Assembly (NCBI GenBank): GCA_035221665.1
Contig: CM069138.1
Location: 50,344,001-50,408,000, forward strand
Reading direction: 5' to 3'
DNA length: 64,000 bases
From: Okamejei kenojei
Lineage: Eukaryota
The position numbers were made by a program, and so were the translations under genes. Shown here one piece after another: positions 25,476 through 64,000 of this stretch. The number at the start of each line of letters is the position of its first letter. The first letter of the stretch is position 1. The notes below the pieces were generated by a model. The model saw only the letters and a program-made list of their open reading frames with translations. It was not told the DNA's origin and did no database searches.

Positions 25476-27176
25476 GCCCCCTCAGGTGATGGTCCTTCCC
25501 TGTTTGAGGGGTTACCTCACAATATCAGCAGTGGAAGAACCCAAGACTGTGGTCCTACCCCACAGAGCCTTGGTGTTGGCTGCACCAAGTTTCACTGCGT
25601 CCCTCAGAATGTACTCCTGCAGTCTGGTGTGGGCCAGTCTGTAACATTCCCTGACGGACATTAAGTTTCCAATTTGATTTGGGTTTTAGTAAGATACCTT
25701 TCCAGCATCAAAAACTGTCTGCGTAATTAGGCACAGTTTCCTTTGATCCAAGCTAAAGACAAAAAATAATTTATGCCATTTTCTGATGTAGATTGGTAGA
25801 TGACCAAAGAACACCCAGATTTAACAGAAATAACGGAGGAACTTTTACTCACGTTGAATAATTCTTTAGAGGAAGCCGTGGGTATCAGGGAATTGGCAGG
25901 TGGGTAACGTTATGTGTTGTGGGAACTTTGGAACATAATATTGGTAGAAGCAAAGTCATTGAATCATACCGCAAGGAAACAGGCCCTTCAGCACAAACTG
26001 TCCATGCTGACCAAGATGCCCCATCAAAGCTAGTCCCATTTGCCCGCATTTGCCCTATATCCCTGAAGGCAAGAGTTGGTTTTGACATTGTGTTTGGCAC
26101 AGATATTGTGGGCCGAATGGCCTTGTATTGTGCTGTACTGTTCTATGTTCTATCTCTCTAAACCTTTTCTATCCATGTACCCATCCATGTACCCAGTCTC
26201 TTTTAAATGTTGTTATTATACGTGTCTCAACTCCCTCCTCTGGCAGCTCATTCCTTACACATCCAATATAGAAATTTAAAAAAATCAATAATGAATATCC
26301 TCATGGATTTCAAAAATAAAATTCTTGTTGGAGTACGAAAACATAGCCTGATCATTTCCATCCACAGATGCTGACTGACCCGCTGAGTTACTTCAGCAAT
26401 TTGTGTTTTGCTGTCATTCAATAAGATACTTTCTAATATTTGTCTTCAGCCCACATCGCTGCAATAAGCACCGACCCACTGATTTCAAATATTATTTTTA
26501 ATTTCAAAAATAAAATTCATTCAGATTTAAAAATATACATAAAACAAAATCTCTTCATATGTTCTCTATCAGTTTCAGCAAGATAAAAGATATTGTGATT
26601 GACTTCAGGAAGCAAAACGGTACACACATCCCAGTATACATTGATCACTCCGAACTGGAGGTGGTCAATAGCTTCAAGTATTTTGGAATAAATATCTCCG
26701 GCAATTTGTCTTGGACTAGCCACATTGAAGCAATGGCCAAGAAAGCACGCCAACGCCTCAACTTCCTTAGAAGGCTTAGCGGGTTCAGCATGTCCTCATC
26801 AACCCTCACCAACTTCTACAGATGTGCTGTCGAAAGCATTTTGTCGGGATGTATCACAGCATGGTTTGAGAACAGCTCCATTCAAGACTGTAAGAAATTG
26901 CAGAGTGTTGTGGACGTAGCCCAGACCATCACACATACTAATCACCCTTCCATTGTCTTCATCTATACTTCACGCCAAACAAAGATCTTCTAGCGAGCAA
27001 AATAGTCCACTCGACGAAAAAGACGTAGTATGGTCATGGGCAGATTCACGGGTAATTTAAGGCCCCTTTTCCGTAACCGGCTTCCGTCTCCACACCAAAG
27101 ATCCCATAGGATAATAGTGCGGAGACGGAAGCCGGTTACGGAAACATCCTCGTAAAAATAATTACGAGAAAAAAAA

Positions 27177-28666
27177 ACGCACGGGCCCCAGCTACGCTTG
27201 CCTCTTAGTCGGGTACGTCGAACAATCCTTGTTCTCGGCGTACCAGGGCCCCATCCCCGACCTCTACCTCCGTTACATCGACGACTGCTTTGGTGTCACC
27301 TCCTGCACCCACACACAACTGACTGACTTCATCCATTTCACCACCTACTTCCATCCAGCACTCAAATACACTTGGACCATTTCCGACATTTCCCTACCAT
27401 TCCTTGACCTCACCATCTCTATTGCAGGTGATAGACTCCTGACCGACATCCACTACAAACCAACTGACTCCCACAGCTACCTGGACTACTCTTCCTCCCA
27501 CCCTGCTTCCTGTAAGGACTCCATCCCCTATTCCCAATTCCTCCGTCTACGCCGCATCTGCTCCCAGGATGAGGTGTTCCACACCAGGTCATCACAAATG
27601 GCCTCATTCTTCAGAGAACGGGGATTCCCCTCTCCTACTATAGATGAGGCTCGCACCAGGGTCTCCTCCATACCCCGCAACACTGCCCTCTCTCCCCATT
27701 CCCCCACTCGCAACAAGGGTAGAGTCCCCCTGGTCCTCACCTTTCACCCCACCAGCCGGCAAATACAACACATAGTCCTCCGCCAGTTTCGCCACCTCCA
27801 ACGTGACCCCTCCACTCGCCACATCTTCCCATCTCCCCCCGTCTGCCGTCCGCAAAGACCGCTCCCTCCGCAACTCCCTTGTCAATTCTTCCCTTCCCTC
27901 CCGCTCTACCCCTTCCCCGGGCACTTTCCCTTGCAACCGCAAGAAATGCTACACTTGTCCCTTCACCTCCCTCCTCCACTCCTTTCAGGGACCCAAGCAG
28001 TCCTTCCAGGTCCGACAGAGGTTCACCTGCACCTCCTCCAACCTCATCTACTGCATCCGCTGCTCCAGATGCCAGATGATCTATATCGGTGAGACCAAGC
28101 GGAGGCTTGGCGATCGTTTCGCCGAACACCTCTGCTCGGTCCGCAATAACCAACCCGACCTCCCGGTCGCTCAGCACTTCAACTCCCCCTCCCATTCCGT
28201 ATCCGACCTCTCGGTCCTGGGCCTCCTCCACGGCCAGAGTGAGCAACACTGCAAGTTGGAGGAACAGCACCTCATATTCTGCTTGGGGAGTCTGCATCCT
28301 CTGGGCTTGAACATTGAATTTTCTCAATTCTGTTAACCCTTGCTGTCTCCTCCCCTTCCCACCTCTCCCTCAGCCCTCGGGCCCTGGCATTCCCTCTCTC
28401 TCTATCTCCCTCCCCCACCCTAGTCGCACTAGCTTCTCATTTTCACACTACAAACAGCTTACAACGGCTTGTTCCCTTTATCATCGATACTTTTTTGCAT
28501 ATCTTTCATTCATTGTTCTTTATCTCTCCACATCACCGTCTATATCTCTCGTTTCCCTGATCCCTGACCAGTCTGAAGAAGGGTCTCGACCAGAAACGTC
28601 GCCTATCTCCTTCGCTCCTTAGATGCTGCTGCACCCGCTGAGTTTCTCCAGCCTTTTGTGTACCCT
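27177..28666 (+). mobile_element. Penelope/Neptune element, 5'-truncated (copy 2), one frameshift near 27835
   Basis: Near-identical to the reverse complement of 12206-13700. Contains LRYIDD, CNRKKCYTC and IYIGETKR. Direct repeat cctcgtaaaaataa at both junctions. Confidence 0.95.
28573..28600 (+). ncRNA. Minimal hammerhead ribozyme motif in Penelope pLTR (one stem II mismatch)
   Basis: CTGAAGA-a-gggtctcgacca-GAAAC-GTC. Confidence 0.55.
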
Positions 28667-40069: not shown

Positions 40070-41712
40070 CAGTGCCCTCCATAATGTTTGGGACAAAGAC
40101 CCTTATTTTATTTATTTGCCTCTGTACTCCACAATTTGAGATTTGTAATTGAAAAAATCACATGTGGTTAAAGTGCACATTGTCAGATTTTATTAAAGGC
40201 CATTTTATTTATTTTGGTTTCGCCATGTAGAAATTACAGCTGTGTTTATACACAGTCCCCCCATTTCAGGGCACCATAATGTTTGGGACACATGGCTTCA
40301 CAGGCGTTTGTAATTGCTCAGGTGCGTTTAATTACTTCCTTAATGCAGGTATAAGAGAGCTCAGCACCTAGTCTTTTCTCCAGTCTTTCCATCACCTTTG
40401 GAAACTTTTATTGCTGTTTATCCACATGAGGACCAAAGTTGTGCCAATGAAAGTCAAATAAGCCATTATGAGACTGAGAAACAAGAATAAAACTGTTAGA
40501 GACATCAGCTAAACCTTCGGCTTACCAAAATAAACTGTTTGGAACATCATTAAGAAGAAAGAGCGCACTGGTGAGCTTACTAATCGTAAAGGGACTGGCA
40601 GGCCAAGGAAGACCTGCACAGCTGATGACAGAAGAATTCTCTCTATAATAAAGGTAAATCCCCAAACACCTGTCTGTCAGATTAGAAACACTCTTCAGGA
40701 GTCAGGTGTGGATTTGACAATGACCACTTTCTGCAGAAGACTTCATGAACAGAAGTACAGAGGCTACACTGCAAGATGCAAACCACTGGTTAGCCGCAAA
40801 AATAGGATGGCCAGGTTACAGTTTGCCAAGAAGTACTCAAAAGAGCAACCACAGTTCTGGAAAAAGGTCTTGTGGACAGATGAGACCAAGATTAACTTAT
40901 ATCAGAGCGATGGCACGTGCAAAGTATGGAGGAGAGAAAGAACTGCCCAAGATCCAAAGCATACCACCTCATCTGTGAAAAACGGTGGTGGGGATGTTAT
41001 GGCCTGGGCATGTATGGCTGCTGAAGGTACTGGCTCACTTATCTTCATTGATGATACAACTGCTGATGGTAGTAGCATAATGAATTCTGAAGTGTATAGA
41101 CACATCCTATCTGTTAAAGATCAAACAAATGCCTCAAAACACATTGGCCGGTGGTTCATACTACAGAAAGACAATGATACCAAACATGCTAAAGCAACAA
41201 AGGAGTTTTTCAAAGCTAAGAAATGGTCAATTCTTGAGTGGCCAAGCCAATCACCCGATCTGAACCCAATTGAGCATGCCTTTTATATGCTGAAGAGAAA
41301 ACTGAAGGGGACTAGCCCCCAAGACAAGCATAAGCTGATGGCTGCAATACAGGTCTGGCAGAGCAATACGAGATAAGACACCCAGCAACTGGTGATATCC
41401 GTGAATCGCAGACTTCAAGCAGTCATTGCACGCAAAGGATATGCAAAAAAATACTAAACATGACTACATTCATTTACATGACATTGCCGTGTCCAAAACA
41501 CTTATGTGCCCTGAAATGGGAGGGACTATGTATAAACACTGCTGTAATTTCTACATGGTGAAACCAAAATGTATAAAAATGGCCTTTATTAAAATCTGAC
41601 AATGTGCACTTTAATCACATGTGATTTTTTTTCTATTACAAATCTCAAATTGTGGAGCAGAGGCAAATAAATAAATGATGGGTCTTTGTCCCAAACATTA
41701 TGGAGGGAACTG
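40070..41712 (+). mobile_element. Tc1 (DD34E, IR/DR-type) transposon, full length, defective; inserted in a V-SINE (~39960-42105, minus strand)
   Basis: ~200-bp TIRs cagtgccctccataatgtttgggacaaagaccc / gggtctttgtcccaaacattatggagggaactg, followed by TA. Internal DR cataatgtttgggaca. Confidence 0.95.
40426..41458 (+). pseudogene. Tc1 transposase pseudogene
   Basis: MRTKVVPMKVK*...GTGRPRKT; VLWTDETK, ILQKDND, WPSQSPDLNPIEH. Several in-frame stops in the N-terminus. Confidence 0.9.
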
Positions 41713-44621: not shown

Positions 44622-47600
44622 TATTTTCCCTTCCTTGTAAATGAAGACGGTCATTTAAGTCCAGTTATCCAATCAAATATAAGTCCATATGAAATCAGTC
44701 CAAAGTCCTTTCAAATTCCATGCCCGCTATTAATAAACGGAAGTCCAAACATATAACGGTTTATGGCTTCACAGCTGAAAATCTTGCAGATACTCAGGTC
44801 TCCTCGTCTGTCGCTGAGAGCGTCGAACAGGATTTGGCTGCTCTGCTCTATGCTGACCGTGATCATTGTCTTGACTGGATATCGGGAAAGGAAAAGCGTC
44901 CTGTTCATCTTCTTCCTGTCCCTGTCTGCTTGCGATGAGACGCCTCACGTTCCATCTGGTGTCATCTTGGAGGAGGTATGCGTTCTTACCGAGTCCCCGT
45001 TTGATCTGGATCGGCTTTGAGAGTGCGCTTGCGAGGTTATGCTGTCTGTTTGGGCGGCTGATTTGTACCTTGAACAGTGGCGCTTGTACTCTGCGTTTGG
45101 CATCACGTACGTTTTCCCTTTCGCTTGTCTGTGTGCTATCGTTTCCGCCCTCGCTTTTGTGTCTGGATTTGGGCGCAATGGTGGTTGAAGAGCATTCAGT
45201 TTCGTTTACAAGTTTCGCCCTGTCATCAACTCTGCTGCCGTTTTCCCAGTCAGCGTGTGCAGTGTGGATCTGTAGGATTGGAGGAGGATATGGATTGACT
45301 GTTCGAATGTTTTCTCCTCCAACATGCTCGCTTTTACGCTTTCTTTGATCACGCGATTGAATCGTTCAACCCGACCGTTTGATTGGGGGTTGTATCGAGA
45401 CGTCCTCTGATGTTGGATGTTGTAGCTCATAAGGAAGGTGGAGAACTGTTCAGATATGAACTGTGGGTCATTGTCTGTCGTTATGACCTCCGGCAGTCCC
45501 CACTTAGTGAACAACTTTTGCAAAGCTACAGAGCTCTAGCTCCGCACTTGTGGAAGCGTTATAATCATGCTTTCTTCAATTTTCATACTGGCTGAATCAT
45601 CGAGAATCGCAATGATCGAGCTTGTTGTGACTGAAGTAGTTGCGATCTCAGGCCACTTGCTGTGGAGATTATGTACTACAAGTAGAAACGTCTGGCTTCT
45701 TGGCGCAGCTTGCACCTCTCCGAAGTTGTCGACTTCCAAGTGTCGACTCTGCTTTCAGCTCTTCCCGCGTTACTAGATTCGCCGTCGCATGCGAAATCAC
45801 CATGAGAACGTAGTCGTCGATGTGGCTTCAAGCGTCACTATCGCGTGTGCGTGCGGGTGCCATCGTTGGAACGCGACTGATCATGTCTGCAATGCGATTG
45901 CGTGAACCTGCGAGGTATTCGACTTTGAAATTGTACTGATGAAGGGGATCGGACCATCTGTAGATCCGGAGCGGACGATGTCCTGAGCCTGATGTGTCCA
46001 GTAACGTAATTAGCTCTTGGTGATCCGTACGGAGAGTGAAAGGTCTCCCGTATAGGTATATGTGCCAGTGTTCACACACGTAAATGCACGCTAATGCTTC
46101 GTGTCCCCCGGTGGACTACTTGCGTTCGGTTGCAGTCAAGGGACGGGATGCGAATGTGATCAGTCGTTCGCTTCCATCGATGCACTGCGATAACACTGCT
46201 CCGATCGCGATACTGGAAGCATCTGTTGTGATGTACATTTCAGCACTTGGGTCGAAGTGCGCAAGAACAGGCGGAGATGCTATTTTGTCTTTCAGCATGT
46301 TGAACGCGATGTCCTGCTCATTTGTTCATTCCCACTGTGTGTCTTTCCGTAGCAGCTTCTGTAGCGGTTCTGCGATTGTGCGTACTGCGACACAAACTTG
46401 CGGTAGAAGTTGGTGGTGCCCAGAAATGAAGCTAACTCTTTTGCGTTTGTTGCGGTGGGGAGCGGTTTGATGGCTTGGACATTGTCCGGACTAGGCTCAA
46501 CTCCAGTCACTGTCACTCTGTACCTGAGAAAATCAATCTTGGAAGCTGCAAATGTACACTTTGCTGCGTTGAGCATCAAGGTGTATTGCGCGAGATGAGC
46601 TAACACTGCATCCAGTCGTAGATCGTGTTCCTCCTTGTCCCTGCTATGGACGACGACATCGTCGACGAGGATGAGGGTTCCGTCAATGCCTGACAGAACC
46701 GATGCCACAATTTTTTAAATGCACTAGGCGCTGAGCACAGTCCATACGGCATCCTAGGGTACTGAAATACTCCTTCATGTGTGATGAATGCTGACAAATG
46801 CCGACTGCGTTCTGCTAGTGGTACCTGAAGGTAGCTTTGGCGCATGTCTAGCTTTGTGAACACTGTTGAACCGTGGAACGACGCGGATAGCTCTTGTATT
46901 GTTGGCAGAGGATATTTGTCCGGACTGATGGCTTTGTTGACCGATTTGAGATCGATGCAAAGTCTGAGTTCACCGTTCTTGTGTCGCTAGCACCTATTGA
47001 CCCAACATCCTGGTCAGCCCTGTCCTTTATGGAGTAAACGTCGTGTACACCTGGAGATTCATCGTCTACATGGCGCTTTCTTCTTCGACGACCGGCAGAC
47101 TTTCGCAGTGATTCTGCTTTGAACGCGCGTTTACCGTTTACCGTAAGTTGGACATTCCTTGGGAGCGTGTGTCCGGCCACAGTTCGGACACTGCTGGTTT
47201 GAGCGATTGTTTTTTGACTGTTTCTGAATGCCTTACACTGGTGCTGTGTTCATCTGGTGAGATGAGTGACTAGATGCTCCCTCAGTGCTTGCCATCGAAT
47301 GTTGTTTGAGCACCTTGACATCGTGCAGCGCACTTACAATTTGCACGGCTAATTCTTGTGCCTTTTCGAGTTTGAGATCATCATCCTCCATTAGAAGGCG
47401 CTCTCTGATCCGTGGGATAGAAATCTTTTCTATCAGCTGGTCTCTCACCAACTCATCAGTCAGTGCCCCAAAATTGCACTTTGCAGCCAGTTCTATTAAT
47501 GGAGAAACAAATTGCTTCACTGGTTCGCCATGTCCCTGAGAACATTGACGAAAACGGTATCTCTCTATCATTATACTTGTCTTTGTGCCAAAATACTTGC

Positions 47601-47861
47601 CAAGTGCAGTAACAGCATTACTGTACACCCGTTGCAGCACTGTCCAACTGCGCGAAGATCCGCTGTCCCTCCGTTCTGAGGCAATGCAGCAGGATCACTC
47701 GGCGGCGAATGTCCGAAATGGCCTCATCGTCCAGGCCGCTTGCGATCGAGTTTGTGGTGAACCTTTCAAACCATCATGTCCATGGTACAGGAGGCTCTCC
47801 TGGACTTTCCAAGAATGGAGATGGGGCAGCGAGAGTTGAACTAGCCATCCTCGTCACCAGA

Positions 47862-48050
47862 TGTTGTGTTTGACAGCTAATAACTCACAATCGACTCTTA
47901 TTGTTCCGAGCCTGTCAGTGTGTCTATTTCAAGACAAAATGGCAGCGTTGAAACTAGTCAAGATGGCCCCGGACCCATTCCGAGGAAAACATACATTTCG
48001 GGGCAGAGCCCTCTAATGGTGACTGTAAGGACAGTTACCCAGACACAACA
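47862..48050 (-). repeat. 5' LTR
   Basis: Direct repeat of 44433-44621; adjacent to the PBS. Confidence 0.95.
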
Positions 48051-48569
48051 GACTACACTTCTGCATTCAGCTTCCCTCCCCTCACTGATGCAGCCCACAA
48101 TTGCAGAATCATCTAAAATGTTCTGCAGGTGGCAGGGGTCTGAGTTATACATATCTGAAGACCCCAGTAAATTAACTTCTACCTGGCAAAAAGCAGTAAA
48201 ACTACATGGATGGTCCTCTAGAACGTCAGAGTTCAGGAATCAAGAGTGTCAAGAGAGTTCAATTGTCATATGCACCGAAATGAAACAATGAAATTCTTAA
48301 TTACAGTAGTAAAATAGATCTGTAAACACAGTTGTGGATAGTTAACATAATAAAGCAAACTAAAAAAGTTCAGTAAATTAAAAAACACACAATATTATTG
48401 CAACACAAAACAAAAGTCCAAAGTCCCTATTGCACCCAGGACAGTTTAGTTGGTTTATGTAGTATTAAATACCTGATGGTTGTTGGGAAGAAGCTGTTTC
48501 TTAACCTGGAGGTCATGGTCTTCGGATTCCTTGAATTAGAATGGATTTAGTAAAAGGATGAAAAAGAGA

Positions 48570-48995
48570 AACTTGTTATTGTATCTGCCCTTTCATATTC
48601 CTTACAGAATGTCCCAGTATTTATGAAAACCAACGATTTGCTTTTTTTTAAATTGCGATGATGGAGACATGGAAAATAATTCAGGAACGTGGTAAACCCT
48701 TGACGAAGGCTCCCACACACAACAATTGATCTGGATTGCTATTTTAATAAGGTTGATTAAGGGATAAATATTGGCTGGAACAGGAAGGAGAACTCCACTG
48801 GCCTTCTTCCAAAATAGTAAATGGGATCTTTACCATCTACTTGAGAGACCAGACAGGACCTCAATTCATTACCGGATCCAAAAGATGACCTCTCGAAAAG
48901 TGCAGCATTCTTTCAGTACTGCTTTGAAATATCACTCCATACCTTTGTCCTCATATCTTTAGAGGGTTTCTGAATCAAGAATCTTCTGACTTGGG
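48570..48995 (-). mobile_element. SacSINE1-like Deu-SINE, near full length, ancient
   Basis: Reverse Deu domain ggttgattaagggataaatattggctggaacaggaaggagaactcc..cttcttccaaaatagtaaatgggatcttt, with head remnant (gtgcagcattctttcagtactgc...cttctgact). Confidence 0.7.
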
Positions 48996-51638
48996 TGGAA
49001 CACCATCAATTAGAGTCGAGAGTGAGATAGTTTTAGTTGAGGTAGTTTTAGTTCCATTTACTTCTTTAGGTTTATTATTGTCACAAGTACTGAGGTACAA
49101 TGAAAAGCCTTGTTTTGCATGCGATCCAAACAGATCAGATATGTCTGAATCAGGTAGATACAATGTTCAAACTCAAGTATAACAGATAAGGTAAAGGGGA
49201 AGATAGAGAATGCAGAATACAGTGCTCAACGCTGTCGCACAATAGGTCCATGGACATAAAGAACCATTGAATCATTAAACTAAACTCCAATGTCCATAAT
49301 AGGTAGAGGTGAATCAGACAGCACCCTACCTTTTGGAAGGACCATTCAGAAGCCTGATAACCAAGGGGTTCCCAAAGAATTATTGGATATTATAAATCCA
49401 TAAGATGAACCCCAATTATTAGTTCCACCTGAAAGTCTGACCAGTGGACACAAGTGGAAATCCAGTAACTGGTTGGTTTACAACTGATGATTGAGAAAAG
49501 GTCTTTACTCAATAAGGACAATAATCTGCCAGTGAAGTAAGCAAAAACATTGATGAAATGCGACGATGGAGAATTAGTGCACTAAACAGGTGACTTTCCA
49601 TGCTTGAATGTCTGCATGAATGTCTGCTTCCTTTATTGGAACTCGGAGGAGAATCAAGTCAAGTAGCAAAGCGCCACTGTGCAGTACAATCAGTTATTTC
49701 AGACTCTGCCATTTGATGATGTCTCCCAACAAAACAAACAAGACTTGCTCTGCATGTTGATGTAGGGCGGGAAAGAATGTTGTAAATCCCATTACACAGG
49801 CCCCATTCTTCTCTTTTAACAAACGATCTCATATCCCTTTCAGCAAAACTGGATTTTGTGCCAATCCTTTTTCTTCTTCTTTATTAGCAGCTGCATAGAA
49901 TTGAGGAGGTCTACAAGTGTGTTTATTGTACTGATTGATAGGTTTTGCAATAGGATAATTATATTTTCTTGATTGGAGCACTATGAAAAATGAAAATTGG
50001 GGAAGGACAGTGTACAGAGGGCATATCATTTTCTAGGTCAATGACATTTTAGCAATCGTTTTCAATTTTCTTTTTCATAGTGCATATTTATGCTAAGTAA
50101 TTGTTCCATTCTGTCTGATACATCATTGTGACAGAGAGTGAGTGAGTCATACAGTGTGGAAACAGGCCCTTCAGCCCAACTTGTACATGCCAAGATAACC
50201 CTGCCTTTCCGATGATTGTTCTTAAATTTATTGAGCCATTGTGAAAATAGAAGCATGAAATAATTTAAATATTTAAGAAGAACAACTGTATTTAAAACTA
50301 TACATTCTTCAATGCCTCAATGAAGATGGATGCATTGACCACTGACTGCAAAAGGTGAATCCTAAGGGTGGGCGTGGCCATGATCCCTGAGAAATCTGCA
50401 GCAACATTTTATGTTGAGTACCCACGTGAAGTATAGAGACTGAGGTTTTGGACATCCCATTCCTTCCACATGCAGCAAGTTCTGCCCTCAATAGTCTGCC
50501 CAATGGCTACATGTGCAACATCCTTTCACAGCATAAAAAAGTGTTTCTCCCTGTTGCTAGCATATTGAAAAATGGATAGTACAGAGAGGGATCCCATGGT
50601 ATGACCTTTGGCCCCTATATTGTTGCTCCTGCAAATCTATCCAAGTGAACAATGGGAGAGAGAACCTGGTGGGAATGGGAACGGAACATCGGGACATTCG
50701 AGACTTAAAATTAGAAAATTGTTCATACCGTATCTATGTCTACCTACGCTATTCCAATTTTCCAGAGAATATTCCAGGAGATGTATATTGAACAGATGAA
50801 AGCTGTTATTGTTTACATTCTAAAATCATTTAAGAGATAAGGATCTATTTGTGTAGTGCAAAATATTTCTAATTTCTAATCTCTAAATATACCGCGAGCC
50901 TGTGTATTTGCATTTAATTGCCAGCAAGCCTTTGTCAGTGTAGGACTGCCTCCCAGTGGACCAATGATGCATAACTGCTTTCCTGGAGCAGAGATGTCCA
51001 AGATGCTATCCATTCTTTCAGGATTCTCTGCTGTTGGCTAAATTAACATTCCCACAACGATTGCTATATTCCAGTGTTAAATTTATTTTCATCAAATGTA
51101 AATTGTTTCTCTCTACAGGCTGTATATGTTGGAATGCATTGTTATCAAAATAGCATGACCTGATTACTAAAAAAACAGCATAACGTTATATGTGGATAGT
51201 TTCATGGAAGTGAAGGTGCATCTCAGATTTCCTTTTGGAAATCCTCAATTATATTTGTGTGTATTGATTAGTAAGGGTGTCGAGCTTTGTGGGGCGAAGG
51301 CAGGAGAATCGGGTTGAGAAGGAAAGTCAGATCAGCCATGAATGAATGGCGGAGAAGGCTCGAGGGCCGAATGGCCTAATTCTGCTCCTATGATTTATGA
51401 ACATGTATTTGGTAGGATTTAAATGATCAATAATGCAGGGAGAATCAAAGTTCTTACTATGCATTGTGGAGCAGACATGAACCAGGACATTGAGAATTAA
51501 ATGATAAAAGGTAGAAGCAAGGAACTGCATATGCTGGTTTACACAAAAGGACACAAAGTGCTGGAGTAACTCAGTGGGTCAGACAGCATCTCTGGAGGCC
51601 ATGATGTTTTTGGGTTGGGACCCTTCCTCAGGCTTCTT

Positions 51639-52966
51639 AGAAGCATAGAAACATAGAAAATAGGGGCAGGAGTAGACCATTCGGCCCTTCGAACTTGCAC
51701 CGCCTTTCAATATGATCATGGCTGATCATCCAACTCAGTATCCTGTACCTGCCTTCTCTCCATACCTCCTGATCCCTTTAGCCACAAGGGCCACATCTAA
51801 CGCCCTCTTAAATATAGCCAATGAAGTGGCCTCAACTACTTTGTGTGGCAGAGAATTCCAGAGATTCACCACTCTGTGTGAAATATGATTTTTCTCATCT
51901 CGGTCCTAAAAGATTTCCCCCTTATCCTTAAACTGTGACCCCTTGTTCTGGACTTCCCCAACATCGGGAAAAATCTTCCTGCATCTAGCCTGTCCAACCC
52001 CTTAAGAATTTTGTAAGTTTCTATAAGATCCCCCCTCAATCTTCTAAATTCTAGCGAGTACAAGCCAAGTCTATCCAGTCTTTCTTCATATGAAAGTCCT
52101 GACATCCCAGGAATCAGTCTGGTGAACCTTCTCTGTACTCCCTCTATGGCAAGAATGTCTTTCCTCAGATTTGGAGACCAAAACTGTACGCAATACTCCA
52201 GGTGTGGTCTCACCAAGACCCTGTACAACTGCAGTAGAACCTCCCTGCTCTTGTACTCAAATCCTTTTGCTATGAATGCCAACATACCATTCGCTTTCTT
52301 CACTGTCTGCTGCACCTGCATGCCTACTTTCAATGACTGGATCACCATGACACCCAGGTCTCGACGCATCTCCCCTTTTCCTAATCGGCCACCATTCAGA
52401 TAATAGTATACTTTCCTGTTTTTGCCACCAACATGGATAACCTCACATTTATCCATATTATACTGCATCTGCCATGCATTTGCCCACTCACCCAGCCTAT
52501 CCAAGTCACCTTGCAACTTCCTAGCATCCTCCCCACAGCTAACACTGCCCCCCAGCTTCGTGTCATCCGCAAACTTGGAGATGTTGCATTCAATTCCCTC
52601 GTCCAAATCATTAATATATATTGTAAATAGCTGGGTCCCAGCACTGAGCCTTGCGGTACCCCACTAGTCACTGCCTGCCATTCTGAAAATGACCCGTTTA
52701 CTCCTACCCTTTGCTTTCTGTCTGCCAGCCAGTTCTCTATCCACATCAATACTGAACCGCCAATACCGTGTGCTTTAAGTTTGTATACTAATCTCTTATG
52801 TGGGACCTTGTCGAAAGCCTTCTGAAAGTCCAGATATAACACTGGTTCTCCCTTATCCACTCTACTAGTTACATCCTCAAAAAATTCAATAAGATTCGTC
52901 AGACATGATTTACCTTTCGTAAATCCGTGCTGACTTTGTCCAATGATTTCACGACTTTCCAAATGT
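51639..52966 (-). mobile_element. Young CR1 LINE, 5'-truncated
   Basis: [66 protein letters not shown] gcttctt (51632-51638, 52967-52973). Confidence 0.95.
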
Positions 52967-53339
52967 GCTTCTTCACTCATAATAATAAAAGGTGTCTTGA
53001 TAGGAACAGTAGATGCAGAACTAAAGTGTGCTGATTTCAAATTAATGTGTTTGCAGGAAATCTAGATTGTTTCATCCAACAGCAATGGATTTACAGCAAA
53101 TACAATGCATCAAACTGCCAGACCATGTTCAGTTCACAAGTGATATCCCCAACAGGCAAATAAACAGCATTTAGACTTTAAAGAAACACCATAAAGTACC
53201 AGAAGGCATCTGGTATTTGTGGAATGGATCAGTGACTTTGGAAACATAAGGAAGTTGATAGCAAAACTAAATAAGATGTAGTGTTAAAAGTTTTAAAATA
53301 ATACGGACAAGATTTTCATTCTGCATTTCTGTTTTCAAG

Positions 53340-53378
53340 GATATATGTTGGAAAAGAAACGACTGAGACAATAAAATG
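53340..53378 (+). CDS. AHNAK-like: AHNAK-family gene: 5'UTR exon ending in the start ATG (53376-53378)
   Basis: Acceptor tttctgttttcaag|, donor ATG|gtatgt, A at -3, in-frame TGA upstream. Splices in frame to the acceptor at 56097. Confidence 0.55.
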
Positions 53379-53759
53379 GTATGTATTGTTTACAAGCACT
53401 ACTAAACTACCAAAATATTATTGATGATATTAGTATGTTATTTGCCCGAAAATTCTGGTACTTTCTATGATTCACACACCCACTCACTGCATATTTCGGT
53501 AAACGTCTCTCTGATTTATATCACCACCTATTTATTAATGATTGAAAAGTGTACCTTACAATAATGAGGGCCCTCCTCCACTGGCATGTTATGGCTGCAT
53601 TGTTTGTTCTATGTATTTAACTGCTGCAGCAACTCCTCAAGGCTGTTTCGACCACAATTCCCACAGTATTGGGGAAGTTGATGCAAGGGTGCTGCACTGC
53701 CTCTGTTTTCAACTGTAAATCACTTACCGTTTCAGATTGAATGTTTATTGTTCCCTCTT

Positions 53760-54576
53760 CATGGTTGATTATTGGTGTATTGCTGTTACAGGCACTAAGG
53801 TACAGTGAAAAGCACTGTTTGCAAGTTATCCAGTCAAATCATACCAGACATGAGTACAATCAAATCATGCACATGTATAATTGGTGGTGCAAAGAGAAAA
53901 ATAACAGAGTGCAGAGTAGAGTGCTTACAGCATTGTAGCTACAGAGAAAGTGTAGATAAAAAAAGTACAAGGCCTGCAATAAAGTTTGGAAGATCAGGAC
54001 TGCACCCTAGCTTATGGGAGGACCATTCAGTCATCTGAGAACAGCATGGGAAGTGGCTGTACCTGAACCTTGTGGCATATGCTTTTAAGCTTTTGTATCT
54101 TCTGCCAAACAGGAGGGGAAAAGGAATGACTGCAGTGAAAATGGACCTTTATTATGTTGGCTGCTTTCCCAAGACGTGGGAAGTGTAGATGGAGTTTATG
54201 ATGGGGAGGGAGTGGGGGGAGGGGTGGAGGGGGAGGACTGCGCAATGGGAAATGGCGCTTTGGCACCACTGATGCTGACTAGAGCATGTACACAACCTCA
54301 CTTCCTGGGTCAATAAGTAGATCCTTCATCTTGCTGAGATTCAAGGCGAGTCTCTTGCCTTGACACTATGTTATTAAGCTCTCTATCTCCTTTCTATACC
54401 TGGTCTCATCGTGGTTCAAGATCAGAACCACTATGTTCATGTCATCTGCAAATGTGTAAGTGGAGTTAGAGCTGTATTTGGCCACAGTTGTGCGTGTGTA
54501 GGGAGTATAGTAAGAGGCTGAGAACGCATCCTTGTGGAGCACCAGTGTGGAGGATGTTCTGTCGCCTATCTTCACT
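53760..54576 (-). mobile_element. Old Rex1/Babar-type LINE fragment (host of the Vingi insertion)
   Basis: SNSTYTFADD.NIVVLI.NHDETRYRKEIESL. Confidence 0.7.
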
Positions 54577-55725
54577 TTTTCTTTGAGGCAGCAGAGGTTA
54601 TGTAACGCCCTCCAGGCGTTGTAGCCAGTTCAATGTGCTGTGTCGAGGGCCTTGAGGTCTACCCCTCCACCATGGAGGCGGAGGACAGCGCAGTCGGAAA
54701 CGACCCGCTGCACTGTTTGCTGGTCTGCTCCACACATGCAGGCTGCTGATGAATGCAGCCCCCAGCGATGCATGTTGGTGTTGAACCGGCCGACCCCTGT
54801 ACGGTTCAGGGCGACCCACTCTTTGCAGGGCAGGTCCGAGCCGGGTGGGGCTGTGGTGTTCGGTGCAACAGTGAATTGCGGAGGTCTTGAAGTCTGTTCC
54901 CAGCTGGTTCTCCATGCTCCTAGTGTGTTGAAACCGGAATCGCTGCGTGACAGGAGAAGGGGCGACGAGATGACAGGCGTTTATGTCCCAGTTGCTGTGA
55001 GTACTGGCGAAGGAGGCCTTGCACACCATGCCTGCGGGTGAAGTACTCTCTGCGAAGCTTGGCGGGTGCGATACCTGCGAGCACCGGCAGAAGATCCGTC
55101 GCAAGTAGGGCGTAGGCAGCCGGTGATGATCCGCATGGTGTTGTTGAGGATGACGTCTAGCTTGCTCGTATGAGCGCTACGGCACCGTGCTGGGGCCGGC
55201 GTACTCAGCGTGTACACGAGTGTCTTGCACTACACGAGTGCAAGGACACTGGTTCGGAGAGTAGATGCCCTGGCGCCCCATGACGATCCAACCAAGCAAC
55301 GCAGGAGGTTGTTCCGCGCCGAGACTTTAGCACGGAGAGCTTCAAGCTGTTGCTTGTAGGTCAGCTGCCGATCTAGTTTCACCCCGAGGTATGTAGGAAA
55401 TGGGTTACAGGCTAGGGGTGACCCATTGAGGGTGACGGTTAGCTGGCGTTGAGCTTCCTTGTTGTTCAGGTGAAAGGCCATTATGGTGGTTTTTGTCACA
55501 CTCAGTTTTAGCCTCCAGGTCTTAAGGTAGCCCGTGACAAGTTCCATATCCACCGTGAGCACATCCTCCACGTTTGACCAACTCCTGTCCAAATGCAGTA
55601 GGGCCAGGTCATCTGCATATCCGTACTGGCGCGAGATCGTGCGTGGCAGATCGCTGATATAGAAATTGAAGAGCAAGAGGATCGCTGATAGATCGCATGC
55701 AGATCGTTGGTATAGAGATGGAAGA
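54577..55725 (-). mobile_element. Vingi/Ingi-group LINE, 5'-truncated
   Basis: LFNFYISDLP...YADDLAL...WRLKLS..KT...FHLNNKEA.RQL...TYLGVKLDRQLTY...SSWGA.ASTLRT; RIITGCLRPT; C-terminal CMCGADQQT..VVSDC. 13-bp TSD gcctatcttcact (54564-54576, 55726-55738). Confidence 0.85.
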
Positions 55726-56096
55726 GCCTATCTTCACTGAATATAGTATATGGTTCAGGGACTCAAGAATCCAGTTGCCATTCAGGAGGCATTGAAAACA
55801 TTGATATCAAATTCACGTTAAACAGAATGAGATGTCAGAATAGAAGTATTCTTTCTATAGGCACAGGTAATGTGAATAGGTAAAGGAGTATGCATTTTGT
55901 ATGTAATTTTCCCCTTCTCATCTCTGTACTCCAAATTATTCACACCAAAGTGAGATTTGAAGTGGGAGTGGGTGGTGGGAGAAAGGGATTGTTTCCCTTT
56001 TGAACTGAAAAAAATATATAATTTTTCTTAAGATGAATGGTTTCACTTTTAAAGGATCATTGCAGGCACTTACATCAATGTTTCCTTTTAAACTAG

Positions 56097-56253
56097 AATT
56101 TCAGCATGCAGAGAGACACGGCAATGGTTCTCCCCAGCAGTGAAACAGCTCTCTCTGATGAACTTACCCTGACTGATTCACCTGGTGGAGGGGTTATCAT
56201 TGAAGACATACAGCAAGACTCCCCAGTTGCAAGAGGTGGCACCCTGAAGAAAG
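56097..56253 (+). CDS. AHNAK-like: AHNAK-family gene exon, PDZ-like domain N-half
   Basis: Translates NFSMQRDTAMVLPSSETALSDELTLTDSPGGGVIIEDIQQDSPVARGGTLKK(G), compare AHNAK GVFVQEVTQNSPAARTGVVKEG. Boundaries tag| and |gtgatt, phase 1. Confidence 0.85.
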
Positions 56254-56396
56254 GTGATTGTTCTTAATTATATATAATCCGGGTGCTCGGTTTCCTCCTT
56301 GAGATGTATTTCAAGACTTTGTTATTTAGAGAAATTTAGTACATGGTAATATCACTCAAATATATTTAACCAAAATGTACCATTATTATTTTGTAG

Positions 56397-56554
56397 GTGA
56401 TCAACTGAATGCAGTAACAATACATTTTGACAACCTAAACAGTAAAGAGGTTGGCAAAATATTGAAATATACAGAACCATACAAAACAAGTCTAAAATTG
56501 AATACAAAAGGTGAACTCAGAAGTCCAACTTATGGATACAAAAGTTCTTACATG
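56397..56554 (+). CDS. AHNAK-like: AHNAK-family gene exon, PDZ-like domain C-half
   Basis: GDQLNAVTIHFDNLNSKEVGKILKYTEPYKTSLKLNTKG, compare AHNAK GDQIVGATIYFDNL and PRX/AHNAK2 EPYK. Boundaries ttgtag| and |gtaaag. Confidence 0.9.
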
Positions 56555-56672
56555 GTAAAGATTCTTATTTACTTTTGATTTATACATATTTTCAGTTGAG
56601 GAATAAATTATTTACATCCTTTAACATGTCAAAGTTCTGTATTTACATTAACATGACTCTCTGTCCTTTCAG

Positions 56673-57195
56673 GGAAGCAGTGATCAAACTTACTTAAAGT
56701 TGTACAACAGCAAGATCAAGCCCCATCTTAAGCTAGCAAAACCAAGTGTGGATGCACGTGGTCTGACTGTTAATGGAATGACACCTTCATTTGATGCAAG
56801 GAGACCCAATATTTCTTCTGAATTTGACATGAACCTAAAGGCTTCGCCAACTATTGGTTTGAACACCCCTAGTTTTGACATCAATGGTCCACATGGTAAA
56901 ATACAAATGCCTGATGTTAAAGCTTCAACACCGAAGATTGGAGGAGGATTGATAACCTCGGATATTAATGTTGAATCACCAAGAGGGGCCATTAAGATGC
57001 CTGGCATGGACTTCAAAGGTGCAAGTTTTGAAATGCCATCAGCACATTTATCTGGGATTGAGACTCCATATCCGAAAGGGGATTTTGATGGCAATCTGCA
57101 TGCACCAAAGTTTAAAATGTCATCACCCGATTTACATGGACCAAATGTTTCAGCATTGGACACAAACCTTAACCTTAAGGCACCTAATATCAAAG
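56673..57195 (+). CDS. AHNAK-like: AHNAK-family gene exon, start of repeat region
   Basis: GSSDQTYLKLYNSKIKPHLK (compare AHNAK YQRIYTTKIKPRLK), then KMP/PDV/APKFKM repeats. Acceptor cctttcag|, donor AAAG|gtaac, phase 1. Confidence 0.88.
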
Positions 57196-57503
57196 GTAAC
57201 AATGAATTTTCTCAAAAATAACAATACATATCCTAACACTCCTATCTTGCATTAAATTCATGTAATGAAGGAATAATAGCTAAATAATTGCAAATAAATT
57301 TGCCACGAGTCACCGTAGCCAAATAGACAATAAATTCAGGAAGGTTGGTTGTACATCTTAAATCTAGTTGCATTGAAGACACCTTCTTCAAGCGCTATTC
57401 AGCAATAAAAGAACATGTGGATTTGGATGGGAATCTTCCAAACATTATTTCTTAATGTATTATAAGTAATGTATTACTACAAAAGGACAAAGAAAGACGC
57501 AGA

Positions 57504-59189
57504 ATTCACCAAGGAGAAGGATATTGAATTATGTGAGGTAAGGGAAACAAGTAGAGTAGCTATGGAAACTATGAGGATCAAAGAAGAGGAAGTACTGACA
57601 CTTTTACAAAATATAAAAGTGGATAAGTCTCTAGGTCCTGGCAGGATATTCCCTAGGACATTGAGGGAAGTTAGTGTAGAAATAGCAGGGGCTATGACAG
57701 AAATATTTCAAATGTCATTAGAAACGGGAATAGTGCCGGAGGATTGGCGTACTGCGCATGTTGTTCCATTGTTTAAAAAGGGTTCGAAGAGTAAACCTAG
57801 CAATTATAGACCTGTTAGTTTGACGTCAGTGGTGGGCAAATTAATGGAAAGGTTACTTAGAGATAATATATATAATCATCTGGATAAACAGGGTCTGATT
57901 AGGAACAGTCAACATGAATTTGTGCCTGGAAGGTCATGTTTGACTAATCTTTTTGAATTTTTTGAAGAGGTTACTAGGGAAATTGATGAGGGTAAAGTGG
58001 TGGATGTTGTCTATATGGACTTCAGTAAGGCCTTTGACAAGGTTCCACTTGGAAGGTTGGTTAAGAGGGTTCAATGGTTGGGTATTAATAGTGGAGTAGC
58101 AAGATGGATTCAACAGTGGCTGAATGGGAGATACCAGAGAGTAATGGTGGATAACTGTTTGTTGGAGGCCGGTGACCAGTGGGGTGCCTCAGGGATCTGT
58201 GTTGGGTCCACTGTTGTTTGTCATATACGTCAATGATCTGGATGATAGTGTGGTAAATTGGATTAGTAAGTATGCAGATGATATAAGATAGGTGGTGTTG
58301 TGGATAATGAAGTAGATTTTCAAGGTCTACAGAGAGATTTAGGCCATTTGGAAGAGTAGGATGAAAGATGGCAGATGGAGTTTAATACTGATAAGTGTGA
58401 AGTGCTACATCTTGGCGGGACAAATCAAAATAGGATGTACATGGTAAATGGTAGCGAATTGAGGAATGCAGTTGAACAGAGGGATCTAGGAATAACTGTG
58501 CATAGTTCCCTGAAGGTGGAATCTCAGGTAGATAGGGTGGTAAAGAAAGCTTTTGGTGTGCTGGCCTTTATAAATCAGAGCATTGAGTATAGAAGGTGGG
58601 ATGTAATGTTAAAAATTGTACAAGGCATTGGTGAGGCCAATTCTGGAGTATGGTGTACAATTTTGGTTGCCAAATTATAGGAAAGATGTCAACAAAATAG
58701 AGAGAGTACAGAGGAGATTTACTAGAATTTTGCCTGGGTTTCAGCACCTAAGTTACAGAGAAAGGTTGAACAAGTTAGGTCTTTATTCTTTGGAGCGCAG
58801 AAGGTTAAGGGGGGACTTGATAGAGGTCTTTAAAATTATTAGAAAGATAGACAGAGTTGACGTGGATAAGCTTTTTCCATTGAGAGTAGGGAAGATTCAA
58901 ATAAGAGGACATGATTTGAGAATTAAGAGACAAAAGTTTAGGGGTAATATGAGGGGGAACTTCTTTACTCAGAGAGTGGTAGCTGTGTGGAATGAGCTTC
59001 CAGTGGAAGTGGTGGAGGCAGGTTCGATTTTATCATTTAAAAATAAATCGGATAGGTATATGGATGGGAAAGGAATGGAGGGTTATGGTCTGAGTGCAGG
59101 TAGATGGGACTAGGTGAGAGTAAGTGTTCGGCATGGACTAGAGGGGCCGAGATGGCCTGTTTCCGTGCTGTAATTGTTATATGGTTATA
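57504..59189 (+). mobile_element. CR1 LINE, 5'-truncated, intronic
   Basis: VPEDWR.AHVVPLFKKG..NYRPVSLTSVVGKLME, YMDFSKAFDKVP, SKYADD, YKALVRPILEYG; tail gttatatggttat. Confidence 0.95.
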
Positions 59190-59434
59190 ATATGATTTAG
59201 ACTTTTAGATTGAAATTGTTGATTTGGAATAGTCAATATTTAAAAGAAAATTCATTTGTATCACCAAGAAACGTAACTACGGTATCATGGGGTTGAGGTA
59301 AATTCTGAAATTCAGCTTGGCATTATGGCCGAAGCTAATTACCAGTTAATGTTAAGAATCCAAATTAATCTTTCCCTCAATGGTTGGTCGTGATACATCA
59401 ATTCCAAAGCCTTTTATTGAACCATAGCTGATCT

Positions 59435-59735
59435 GCGCACAGTGGTGCAACGGTAGAGTTGCTGCCTTACAGCGAATGCAGTGCAGAAGGCCCAGGTTCG
59501 ATCCCGACTACGGGTGCTGCTGTTGTACGGAGTTTGTACGATCTGTCCGGGACCTGTGTGGGTTTTCTCCGAGATCTTTGGTTTCCTCCCACACTCCAAA
59601 GACGTACAGGTAAGTAGGTTAATTGGCTTGGTAAATGTAAAAATTGTCCCGATTTTAAGGATAGTGTTAATGTGTGGGGATCGTTGGTCGGCGCCGAAAG
59701 GGCCAGTTTCCGCGCTGTATCTCTAAACTAAACTA
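59435..59735 (+). mobile_element. HE1/V-SINE
   Basis: A-box tggtgcaacgg, B-box ggttcgatccc, V-domain and (AAACT)n tail. Confidence 0.9.
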
Positions 59736-60460
59736 CACTATCGATCATATAGAAATTCAGGAATGTAAAAATTGTCTACCCATTCAAATGTAGGATCAAG
59801 GGAACATGTAGAACTTCAATACCACACTGAAACTGACTAGCTAATTTATGAGTTCAAATGTTTAAGAGCATGTAAAAAGTCATAAACATAACAGCTATCG
59901 ATAAGATGGGCCTAAGGTACATGTAGCAATTAATACTTGAGATGTTGGACAATTAAATATCATTATACCATCTTCCCATTTAAAAAAATGAGTATTAGCA
60001 GGATGATTTATAAGGGAAGTAATCCGGACCCATGTAATGTGATTGTGCGAGGGATTAACTAGTCTACAAAGCTGCATTCTTCACCATCCAGCAGACAGCT
60101 TAGGGAACATGATCATCAAGATCTTAGTCGTTGCATAAATACACCGATATTAAATTGCTCCAAAATTAAATGTTCCCCTACAAATAAGATTGTGCCTAAT
60201 CGTTATTTTCAGCAGAAGGTGCAATTTGAAGGTTCTAAATTTAACGTCAGGATAAAATGAACACCAAATTAGATACAGTACAAATATCTAATGGCTGATC
60301 CGTAGATGTAGGTGATACAGCAGATAAATTATGTCATTTAAATAACCATGGGTGTGCAAATTGCAAAATAATGGTTTAGAACATGTTTTAACGGCAAAAC
60401 AAAGCCATAATGTTAAAAATGCCCTTCATTAACATGATAAAAAAAATGTTTCCATTTCAG

Positions 60461-63400
60461 ATGTCGGCCTCAATTTATCATCACCAAATATAGATCTTGA
60501 AGCTCCAAACTTTCAAACTTCAAACATTGATGTAAGTGCTCGAAGGTTGGTACAGAAGGAATAAGGATCCCAAAATTTAAAAAAACCTGCATTTTCGCTC
60601 ACTGGAAATGATCCTAAAGGGCCTGAACTGGATGTGTCTATACCAGGGGTGAAAACAGATATAAAGACTTCTGATATGGACCTTAATGGTGGAGTAGATC
60701 TCCCTGACGCTAACGGGAATTGGAAAATGCCGAAAATGCAATTTGCCCTCCTTTGGATTATCTGGATCCAAAGACAGATGTGGATTTTGATGGTTCATTA
60801 AAAGCACCCGGTGTTGGTGTGTCAGGTCCTGATCTTAAGGGGAATTTTGAATCTCCAAATGTTGATTTAAAACTTCCAAAAGGAGAAATAGATGCAAGCT
60901 TGCCAGATGCCAAATTTGAAATGCCAAAATTTAGCATGCCAAGTTCAAATTTGTCCATTCCAGACACCAGCCAGAATTTAAAAGCACCGACAGTGACGGG
61001 CGATTTTGATGCAAAACTGAAGAAACCCAACTTAGACATTTCTGGAATTAAGGGACCTGATGTGAACTTTGGCGGTAATCTTAAAATTCGGATGCTGATA
61101 TTTCATCTCCTGACCTTAAAGCGGGATTCGGATCTGCTGCTGAATAGGTTTTAAAAAGCCAAAAATCAATTGCAGCTTACGATATGCCTGACATGAAGCT
61201 TGATGTTCCCTGAGGTAAATCTGAATGGCAAAGGCATAAAGAAACCTTCACTCAATATGTCTGCAGGAAAGATTTCAGCTCCAGATGTGGACCTCAACCT
61301 GTCAGCACCAAATGTGGACCTCGCTTCCCCAAAATTACAAGGAGATTTCAAAGGGCCAAAAATTGACATAAATGCTCCAAAGGTGGATGGCATTGACACA
61401 GAAGGAAAATTTAAGTTCCCAAAATTTAAAAAGCCTACTTTTTCACTTTCCCGGAAATAAACCAAAAGGACCTGAACTGGATGTATCTGTGCCAAATGTA
61501 AAGGCAGATATAAAGACTCCTGATGTGGACCTTGACGGAGGAGTGGGTCTCCCTGAAGCAAAGGGGAAATGGAAAATGCCAAACTTGCATCTGCCCTCCT
61601 TTGGATTATCTGGACCCAAAGGACCAAATGTGGATTTTGATGGTTCATTAAAAGCACCCGGTGTTGATATGTCAGGTCCAAATCTTAAGGGGAATTTTGA
61701 ATCTCCAAATGTTGACTTGAAAACTTCCAAAAGGAAAAAATAGATGCAAGCTTGCCAGATGCCAAATTTGAAATGCCAAAATTTAACATTGCCAAGTTCA
61801 AATTTGTCCATTCCAGACACCAGCCTGAATTTAAAAGCACCAACAGTGACAGGCGATCTTGATGCAAAACTGAAGAAACCAATTTAGACATTTCTGGAAT
61901 TAAGGGTCCTGATGTGAACTTTGGCGGTAATCTTAAAATTCTCGGATGCTGATATTTCATCTCCTGACCTTTTAAAGCGGGATTCGGATCTGCTGGAATA
62001 GGTTTTTTAAAAAGCCAAAAATCAATGCAGCTTACGATATGCCTGACATGAAGCTTGATGTTCCTGAGGTAAATCTGAATGGCAAAGGCATAAAGAAACC
62101 TTCACTCAATATGTCTGCAGGAAAGATTTCAGCTCCAGATGTGGACCTCAACCTGTCAGCACCAAATGTGGACCTCGCTTCCCCAAAATTACAAGGAGAT
62201 TTCAAAGGGCCAAAAATTGACATTAAATGCTCCAAGGTGGATGGCATTGACACAGAAGGAAAAATTTAAGTTCCCAAAATTTAAAAAGCCTACTTTTTCA
62301 CTTTCCGGAAATAAACCAAAAGGGCCTGAACTGGATGTAACTGTGCCAAATGTAAAGGCAGATATAAAGACTCCTGATGTGGACCTTGACGGAAGAGTGG
62401 ATCTCCCTGAAGCAAAGGGGAAATGGAAAATGCCAAACTTGCATCTGCCCTCCTTTGGATTATCTGGACCCAAAGGACCAAATGTGGATTTTGATGGTTC
62501 ATTAAAAGCACCCGGTGTTGATGTGTCAGGTCCAAATCTTAAGGGGAATTTTGAATCTCCAAATGTTGACTTGAAACTTCCAAAAGGAAAAATAGATGCA
62601 AACTTGCCAGATGCAGAACTAACTGGAGGAAAGTTTAGGTTGCCAGAGGTAAAGTGGCCAGGTCATAATCTGTCATTGTCAGGTCCGGAAAAAGATCTGA
62701 ACCTACCAAAAGGTCAGATAGATCTTTCTGCTCCTGACATTAAGGGGAATCTCAAAGGTCCCGGCCTCGATCTCAAAGGCCCAAATATGGACATCAATGC
62801 TCCAAGTGTTAATATGTCTGATGCAAATGGAACATTCAAAATGCCAAATATAAAGATGCCTTCATTTGGATTTTCTGGACCCAAAGGACCAGGTGTGGAT
62901 TTTGATGGTTCAGTAAAAACACCCAGTGTTGATGTGTCAAGTCCAAATATTAAGGGAAATTTTGAATCTCCTGATATTGATTTGAAACTTCAAAAGGAGA
63001 ATTAGATACAAACTTGCCAGATGCTGACCTTAATGGAGGGAAAGTTTAAGCTGCCAGGAGTAAAATGGCCTGTCAATAAATTGTCATTGTCAGGTCCAGA
63101 TAATGGACTGAAGCTACCAAAAGGTCACGTAGATCTTTCTGCTCCAAACCTTACGGGAGATATCAAAGGTCCCAGCCTCGGTCTCAAAGGACCAAATGTT
63201 GACCTTAATGCTCCAAGTGTTGACATTCCTGATGCAAAGACAAAGTTACAAATGCCAAGTTTACATATGTCTTCCTTTGGTATGTCAGGACCAAAAGCCC
63301 CTGATCTGAATGTTGATGGTTCTGTTAAAGCCCCTGGTATTGACATGTTGGCTCCAAATATTAAAGGAAATTTTGAATCTTCAGATGCGGACATAAAACT

Positions 63401-64000
63401 TCCAAAGGGCGACCTTGATAATCAACATGCCCTATACAGAATTTAAGAAACCAAAATTTAAAATGCCAAAATTTAACATGCCAAGTTCAAATTTGTCCAT
63501 TCCAGACACCAGCCTGAACTTAAAAGCACCGACAGTGACAGGTGATTTTGATGCAAAACTGAAGAAACCCAACTTAGACATTTCTGGAATTAAGGGACCT
63601 GATATGAACTTTGGCGTAATCTTAAATTTCCAGATGATGATATTTCATCTCCTGACCTTAAAGCGGGATTCGGATCTGCTGGAATAGGTTTTAAAAAGCC
63701 CAAAATCAAAGCAGATTACGATATGCCTGACATGAACCTTGAAGTCCCTGACGTAAAACTGAAAGGCAAAGGCATAAAAGAAACCTTCACTCAATATGTC
63801 TGCAGGAAAGATTTCAGTTCCTGATGTGGACCTAAACTTAGCAGCACCCAAATGTAGACCTCGCTTCCCCAAAATTACAAGGAGATTTCAAAGGGCCAAA
63901 CATTGATATAAAATCTCCAAAGATCGATGGCAGTGGTGCAGAAGGAAAATTTAAGTTCCCAAAATTTAAAAAACCTACTTTTACACTCACCAAAAAGAAA
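60461..64000 (+). CDS. AHNAK-like: AHNAK-family giant repeat exon (partial; frameshifted in this assembly)
   Basis: Acceptor tttccatttcag| is phase-compatible with 57195. Repeats read KFKFPKFKKPTFSL, KWKMPNLHLPSFGLSGPKGPNVDFDGSLKAP and PDVDLNLSAPNVDL. Frame breaks coincide with homopolymer indels between near-identical repeat copies. Confidence 0.88.

Follow-up and report, generated by a model that had tools for sequence, protein, structure and literature searches.

Why is the repeat exon of an AHNAK-family gene, undivided in its paralogues, interrupted by an intron in a skate, and from what DNA was that intron made? The question is raised by a 64,000-nt stretch of the Okamejei kenojei genome (hereafter the window; G000:C8:50344001-50408000), in which such a gene occupies position 56097 onward. 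A first-pass annotation of the sequence had proposed that coding repeats were turned into an intron, which then decayed.

Gene structure, splicing and assembly state

All four coding exons lie on the plus strand. The first two (56097..56253 and 56397..56554) encode the first and second halves of a PDZ domain and were delimited by spliced contigs and a boundary check, complemented by tblastn with P0001 for the former and by a match to the AHNAK2 PDZ 4cn0 (E 1e-4) for the latter; a Pfam search of the gene gave no PDZ match at E<=0.01. The 5' part of the split giant exon (56673..57195; spliced contigs and paralogue comparison) begins GSSDQTYLKLYNSKIKPHLK and ends ...APNIK, and its start is homologous to those of the single giant exons of two paralogues on contigs C43 and C9. 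The 3' part, the repeat array (60461..64000, continuing past the window end), was compared with a duplicate copy. The protein closest to the 174-aa exon was from the skate Amblyraja radiata (80%).

The two parts are separated by a GT-AG intron in phase 1 (57196..60460, +; 3265 nt, of which 1281 nt are left once two mobile elements are masked), with GT at 57196-57197, AG at 60459-60460 and K|D at the exon junction. These limits had been predicted in the first-pass annotation and are borne out by the boundary check and the spliced contigs. The 57195-60461 junction, for which confirmation had been called for, is seen in contigs of three of the four runs: X1 and X2, from one study of organism A, and X5, from a second study, of organism B. 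These contigs join 57193 to 60459, which is the same as 57195|60461 because the join is ambiguous by 2 nt. One contig each in X1, X2 and X5 links all four exons, with three introns removed exactly at their GT-AG ends, and the X6 contigs do not cover the upstream exons. No source run is on record as RNA, and X1 and X2 carry the flag 'probably DNA'; the exact skipping of three introns by their contigs fits spliced RNA. The intron is present in both assembly copies and is genuine, and the removal of its GT-AG ends from contigs of three of four runs is that of a U2 spliceosomal intron. The acceptor reads TTTCAG, and TTAAC at 60429-60433, ~28 nt ahead of the AG, is branch-point-like solely by its match to the branch-point consensus. 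Two unique bins of the intron, 57212-57377 and 59868-60365, had zero contig cover, a measure that shows presence and not absence, and a retained-intron form may be compatible with it. Reading on through the donor (57196..57221, +) would finish G-N-N-E-F-S-Q-K-stop at 57221 and yield a short PDZ-plus-linker form, of which there was none among the contigs; such a product would be comparable to the intron-retaining short form of periaxin.

A second copy of the region 47667-68402, in window coordinates, lies 27.9 kb downstream, past a 500-N gap (93.9%, 727 gap columns). Neither copy of this ~21-kb duplicated stretch (window 47667-64000 against G000:C8:50419523-50440153) has every exon in frame. 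Between the window part of the repeat exon and the duplicate there are 28 gap events and 6 substitutions; the second copy, in which the repeat exon has an open frame of 2277 aa, served as the repeat reference for comparisons. The duplication is probably false, with uncorrected indels, and the frameshifts in the window's repeat exon are probably assembly errors. A pseudogene was rejected because the frameshifts are not alike in the two copies, and a true tandem gene duplication was judged unlikely, since the copies abut the 500-N gap and their differences are mostly 1-nt indels.

For the two mobile elements in the intron, the first-pass labels CR1 and SINE were adopted as presumptive. The truncated LINE (57504..59189, +; limits likewise taken over) carries RT-like frames, is 92% and 77% like two nearby copies and is younger than the intron. 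The short interspersed repeat (59435..59735, +) has six other local copies at 73-77% and deep multi-contig cover. Elsewhere in the window, mobile-element frames lie at 12537-14606, 17588-20701, 40534-41376 and 47233-47694, putatively a 689-aa reverse-transcriptase-like frame, endonuclease and RT fragments, a Tc1-like transposase fragment and a gag-like fragment; a second RT-like fragment lies at 27118-28336.

Family relationships of the gene

An N-terminal PDZ domain followed by a repeat array was found, as in the AHNAK family. With AHNAK, AHNAK2 and periaxin, as they are described in the available text of PMC10682155, the gene shares two small PDZ exons, the start of the giant exon, K/P/D-rich repeats and a similar C-terminal KSKGS; it differs from them in having the giant exon in two parts. 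A genome search with the PDZ exons gave four candidates, including two paralogues (C43 and C9). The C43 paralogue has a single 7681-aa exon beginning SGDDEDYQRIF, and the mammalian AHNAK motifs HTVGLKLHRKG and SGDDEDYQRI are present in this gene and in mammal proteins and absent from the window gene. The C9 paralogue groups with AHNAK2 in the tree, in which periaxin is not among the sequences and the groups are not clearly separated; the C9 repeats have no gap >185 nt. The comparison with mammalian AHNAK in the first-pass annotation needs correction: the window gene is a separate AHNAK-family paralogue, and the AHNAK orthologue sits on contig C43. The AHNAK2-like giant exon of C9 (G000:C9:52800001-52860000, L017-L022) is ~31 kb long with many frameshifts, which are probably assembly errors.

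In both paralogues, C43 and C9, the giant exon is uninterrupted by an intron, the distribution that intronisation in the window gene would leave. Human AHNAK and AHNAK2 have one giant exon each (PMC10682155, available text). Taken together, the paralogues and the human genes indicate that the exon split is likely derived.

Genes of the window type were found in sharks, rays, chimaera, ray-finned fish, coelacanth, lungfish and axolotl, where databases name them AHNAK or AHNAK-like, and protein searches gave no amniote match of this type. The window gene has the look of a further, fourth ohnologue in the AHNAK/AHNAK2/periaxin group: paralogues of the C9 members of the PLD, SERTA and aftiphilin families occur on C8, yet 12-48 Mb away. 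The neighbours of human periaxin are PLD3, HIPK4 and SERTAD; on C41, and not on C8, there are a PLD gene, a HIPK-like kinase exon and two SERTA genes. Periaxin, to be expected next to these, was not found in 270 kb of C41 (8890001-9010000 and 9790001-9940000) or among the four candidates of the PDZ search, and may have been lost, moved or lie in DNA outside the C41 stretches searched. A PLD3/4/5-family gene at G000:C43:4617439-4622437, ~70 kb from AHNAK, is the fourth such gene in the genome; mammals have three.

Repeat relics in the intron and the junction in other species

The last ~45 nt of the intron (60416..60460, +) read KMPFINMI-K(K)NVSIS|D, compared with the shark repeat KMPSLNMSGKNVSIP|D/H. 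Against the basking-shark unit K-M-P-S-L-N-M-S-G-K-N-V-S-I-P|H, 10 of 15 residues are identical; the alignment needs a single 1-nt gap, placed in an A run whose length is 8 in the window and 7 in the second copy. Anchored at the acceptor, this end scored 6.2 and 8.7 bits against the host's two repeat classes (0/203 pseudo-acceptors each), and 2.4 bits (1/203) and 3.1 bits (0/203) after removal of the last 16 nt. Anchored profiles of shark and ray repeats (back-translated, 14/15 distinct motifs, anchors set by the downstream exonic motif), which were picked after the likeness had been noticed, gave 14.7 bits against a control maximum of 4.75 (0 of 500 pseudo-acceptors drawn from 590) and still 6.0 bits (0/500) minus the last 16 nt; the other acceptors of the gene scored -0.8, -3.0 (placed one base off) and -2.0 bits. 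Homology to formerly coding sequence, as intronisation entails, was thus found at the acceptor end. Unanchored, this end reached no significance: the pair-HMM score of the 3' piece was -1.4 bits, equal to the control mean, and Smith-Waterman comparison with 60 shuffles was not significant for the sense-strand pieces (36, 23 and 8/60). The entire 3' piece scored 339 against 299 +/- 28 for shuffles and was matched by 8/60, which counts against the reading that we prefer. The repeat-like 3' end described in the first-pass annotation is therefore upheld when anchored (0/203, 0/500) and is not significant otherwise. The host's own units read K-K-P-S-L-N-M-S-A-G-K-I-S-A/V-P, whereas the relic has N-V-S-I as in sharks and sawfish; this difference speaks against recent copying from the exon and gives the relic an older look than the repeats that the host has today.

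A second relic, absent from the earlier annotation, lies inverted in the middle of the intron, ~560 masked bases from the donor (59356..59425, -; 70 nt). It reads GSIKGFGIDVSRPTIEG against GSLKAPGVDVSGPNLKG, with 55 nt gapless at 71%, and scored 19.4 bits on 70 tile profiles (0/142 control chunk-strands), 12.6 bits with a second control set (0/246) and 14.0 bits at the protein level (0/214). Its score was reached by 0/214 controls for each of five elasmobranch profiles and by 9/214 for the chimaera profile, and it is genome-unique except for the duplicate copy. A 68-nt match to the KLKKPNLDISGIKGPDVNFGGNL repeat segment (57370..57437, +) scored 9.6 bits, equalled by 1/142 control chunk-strands, 1/246 in the second set and 27/214 at the protein level, and by 0-19/214 across six species profiles; it is a weak candidate relic. 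Two shorter stretches, 57415-57437 and 60212-60244, had been offered as examples of repeat-like DNA and are at chance level, their scores being reached in 38 of 107 control stretches of AT-rich DNA; the former has value only when extended into the weak match just described. Together, the inverted relic and the weak 5' match suggest that repeat material is spread along the intron. About 190 of the 1281 masked nt (~15%) are recognisably repeat-derived and ~85% are without repeat signal, so that the '~1.3 kb of coding repeats' of the first reading was an extrapolation; the alignment of the masked intron that it had proposed succeeded for the anchored acceptor end and the inverted relic and failed for most of the interior. 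No intron piece gave a signal with the AHNAK (C43) repeats as target, the pieces were unmatched by the chimaera protein profile (best 9/214), and two masked pieces searched in the genome had no further copy.

On the donor side, anchored tests were equivocal. The continuation past the donor was equalled by 6/101 and 0/101 controls against the gene's own K-G-N units and by 65/101 and 44/101 against the other motif class. Shark profiles gave 17/128 and 11/128, and two other target sets 78 and 74/128 and 125 and 124/128. The donor motif N-I-K-G-N-x-E, on which the original proposal had partly relied, finds some likeness in one class of the gene's own units and does not carry the case.

All 16 elasmobranch proteins compared, which represent 13 species (14 found by pattern, plus Amblyraja and C. 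plagiosum), have a first repeat unit that begins abruptly at D without the PSLNMS lead-in, and what is missing is what the last 45 nt of the intron encode. Internal pattern sites have this lead-in in 26 of 35 cases; the other nine comprise five with a different motif and four carpet-shark sites that lost it, apparently through exonic deletion, so that a jump in the protein need not mean an intron. In galeomorph sharks the junction lies ~110-150 aa earlier, and the Pristis isoforms named X1 and X2 show a 416-aa difference inside the repeats. That shark orthologues are continuous coding sequence here, a point that the first-pass annotation had wanted checked, is unlikely, since sharks are not longer at this place and all 16 elasmobranch proteins have the same jump. 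Thirteen shark and ray species share this protein junction, which makes an old event likely and a skate-specific one unlikely. The chimaera protein carries PNIK-G-V-SPK both at the homologous place and, deep in its array, around residue 670. It is approximately collinear with the spliced form and not ~400 aa longer here, which counts against the preferred reading. A scan of metagenome contigs for intron DNA of related species gave 598 pattern matches and no relative. The proteins suggest that the intron would be present in sharks and absent in chimaera. With a chimaera split at 421 Ma and a shark-ray split at 306 Ma (PMC3692497, available text), a gain between the two is the simplest dating and, resting on proteins, a likely one.

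Origin of the intron and comparison with known systems

We consider that the intron was probably gained through latent in-phase splice sites in the coding repeat array. Of the latent sites in the intact exon copy, five of the eight AG|GTRA donors and six of the seven pyrimidine-rich YAG acceptors are in phase 1; they fall at V-T-G, L-Q-G and W-P-G (donors) and at L-S-I-P|D and L-S|G (acceptors). Gly codons in x-G-[N/D] of the present exon yield G|GTRA donors, and I-P-D yields CCAG|AT acceptors. Because donors and acceptors of the repeats are both in phase 1, pairing them drops repeats in frame. A pair of such sites would have been recruited, probably in the common ancestor of sharks and rays, and a repeat block removed in frame, so that the protein would have lost some repeats with its frame kept. 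The removed block would then have decayed, part of it being inverted, and the LINE (92% to its neighbour) and the SINE (73-77% to local copies) would have been inserted later. The acceptor relic would be the best kept part, probably because it serves at once as branch point, pyrimidine tract and acceptor. The original idea of intronised repeats is thus supported by the acceptor end, one internal relic and the intronless paralogues, and not by the donor side, the short examples or the full ~1.3 kb.

The lack of repeat signal in most of the interior, and a chimaera protein little longer at this place, would also be expected if foreign DNA, an old mobile element or another insert, had entered the giant exon and been spliced out via nearby latent sites, in which case only the edges of the intron would be former repeats. 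We regard this as unlikely: the inverted relic lies mid-intron, the visible LINE is far younger than relics of ~70% identity, and the two masked pieces searched have no other copy in the genome. A still less probable course is that an older intron existed and its acceptor alone slid downstream into the exon, the internal relics being stray copies. The confinement of strong sense-strand signal to the 3' end and a donor side without clear repeat signal (shark profiles 17 and 11/128) agree with such a slide; against it, the giant exon is intronless in both paralogues examined, the chimaera PNIK-G-V unit recurs within its array, and the internal relics would need separate events. A recent event in the skate lineage, with the shark junction due to an independent or earlier deletion, is very improbable, given the shark-type and not host-type motif of the relic and the jump common to all 16 proteins, even though the other species are known as proteins alone and carpet sharks show exonic loss of the lead-in motif. 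Chance likeness of A-rich intron DNA or splice signals to K/P/N-rich repeats, or an assembly artefact, would suit the chance-level short examples, the near-chance donor side and the duplicated, error-rich region, and is hardly credible and largely refuted by the spliced contigs of two studies, the intron in both assembly copies and two main relics reached by 0/500, 0/203, 0/246, 0/142 and 0/214 controls.

A bolder and doubtful course of events may be put forward. An inversion in the giant exon of a stem shark-ray would have disrupted the reading frame, and the gene would have been rescued in one step by donor, branch and acceptor signals that lie in phase in the repeat codons, lesion and signals being still readable after 300 million years. 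If this were true, AHNAK-type arrays would be pre-loaded intron sources.

The literature covered, with subscription journals and supplements outside its scope, held no paper on this gene or intron. Intronisation and gain by tandem duplication are both established, and most gained introns lack a traceable source, according to the available text of PMC3443670. In the parts available of two other sources, within-exon indels are seldom put down to intronisation (2.0% of deletions; PMC12457776), and the elephant shark shows a smaller number of intron changes than each of the bony vertebrates in the comparison and the lowest intron turnover of the jawed vertebrates included (PMC3964593). This intron reveals no new mechanism or function; worked examples are rare of an intron whose source can still be read after ~300 million years and for which intronless paralogues serve as controls.

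The phase-1 intron of ATP2A1, which arose at a Gly codon >420 My ago, is a case of the Rogers model of tandem AG|GT duplication, and the same source cites gains in teleosts with sequence resembling the flanking exons (PMC3265369, available text). The present intron shares with ATP2A1 the phase, the Gly codon and the restriction to one paralogue. Precise duplication places the same AG|GT at both ends and leaves the peptide unchanged, whereas here the donor AAAG|GT (K-G) and the acceptor TCAG|AT (I-P-D) come from different motifs, K|D joins the two, and the peptide was therefore changed. Only the 'imprecise' form of tandem duplication (PMC3443670, available text) fits, and in a tandem array it is indistinguishable from intronisation. 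With intronisation (PMC3443670; human retrogenes, PMC3565874) the intron has in common that a former exon was turned into an intron via cryptic sites, usually without frameshift. The retrogene cases, as far as the text of PMC3565874 is available, used cryptic sites, mostly kept the frame and are generally young. Published cases in these sources are generally young and outside repeat arrays, whereas this one is likely >300 My old, contains an inverted relic and has its in-phase sites supplied by the codons of a tandem protein repeat, which suggests a general route by which repeat proteins with same-phase splice sites in their codons can shed repeats by splicing.
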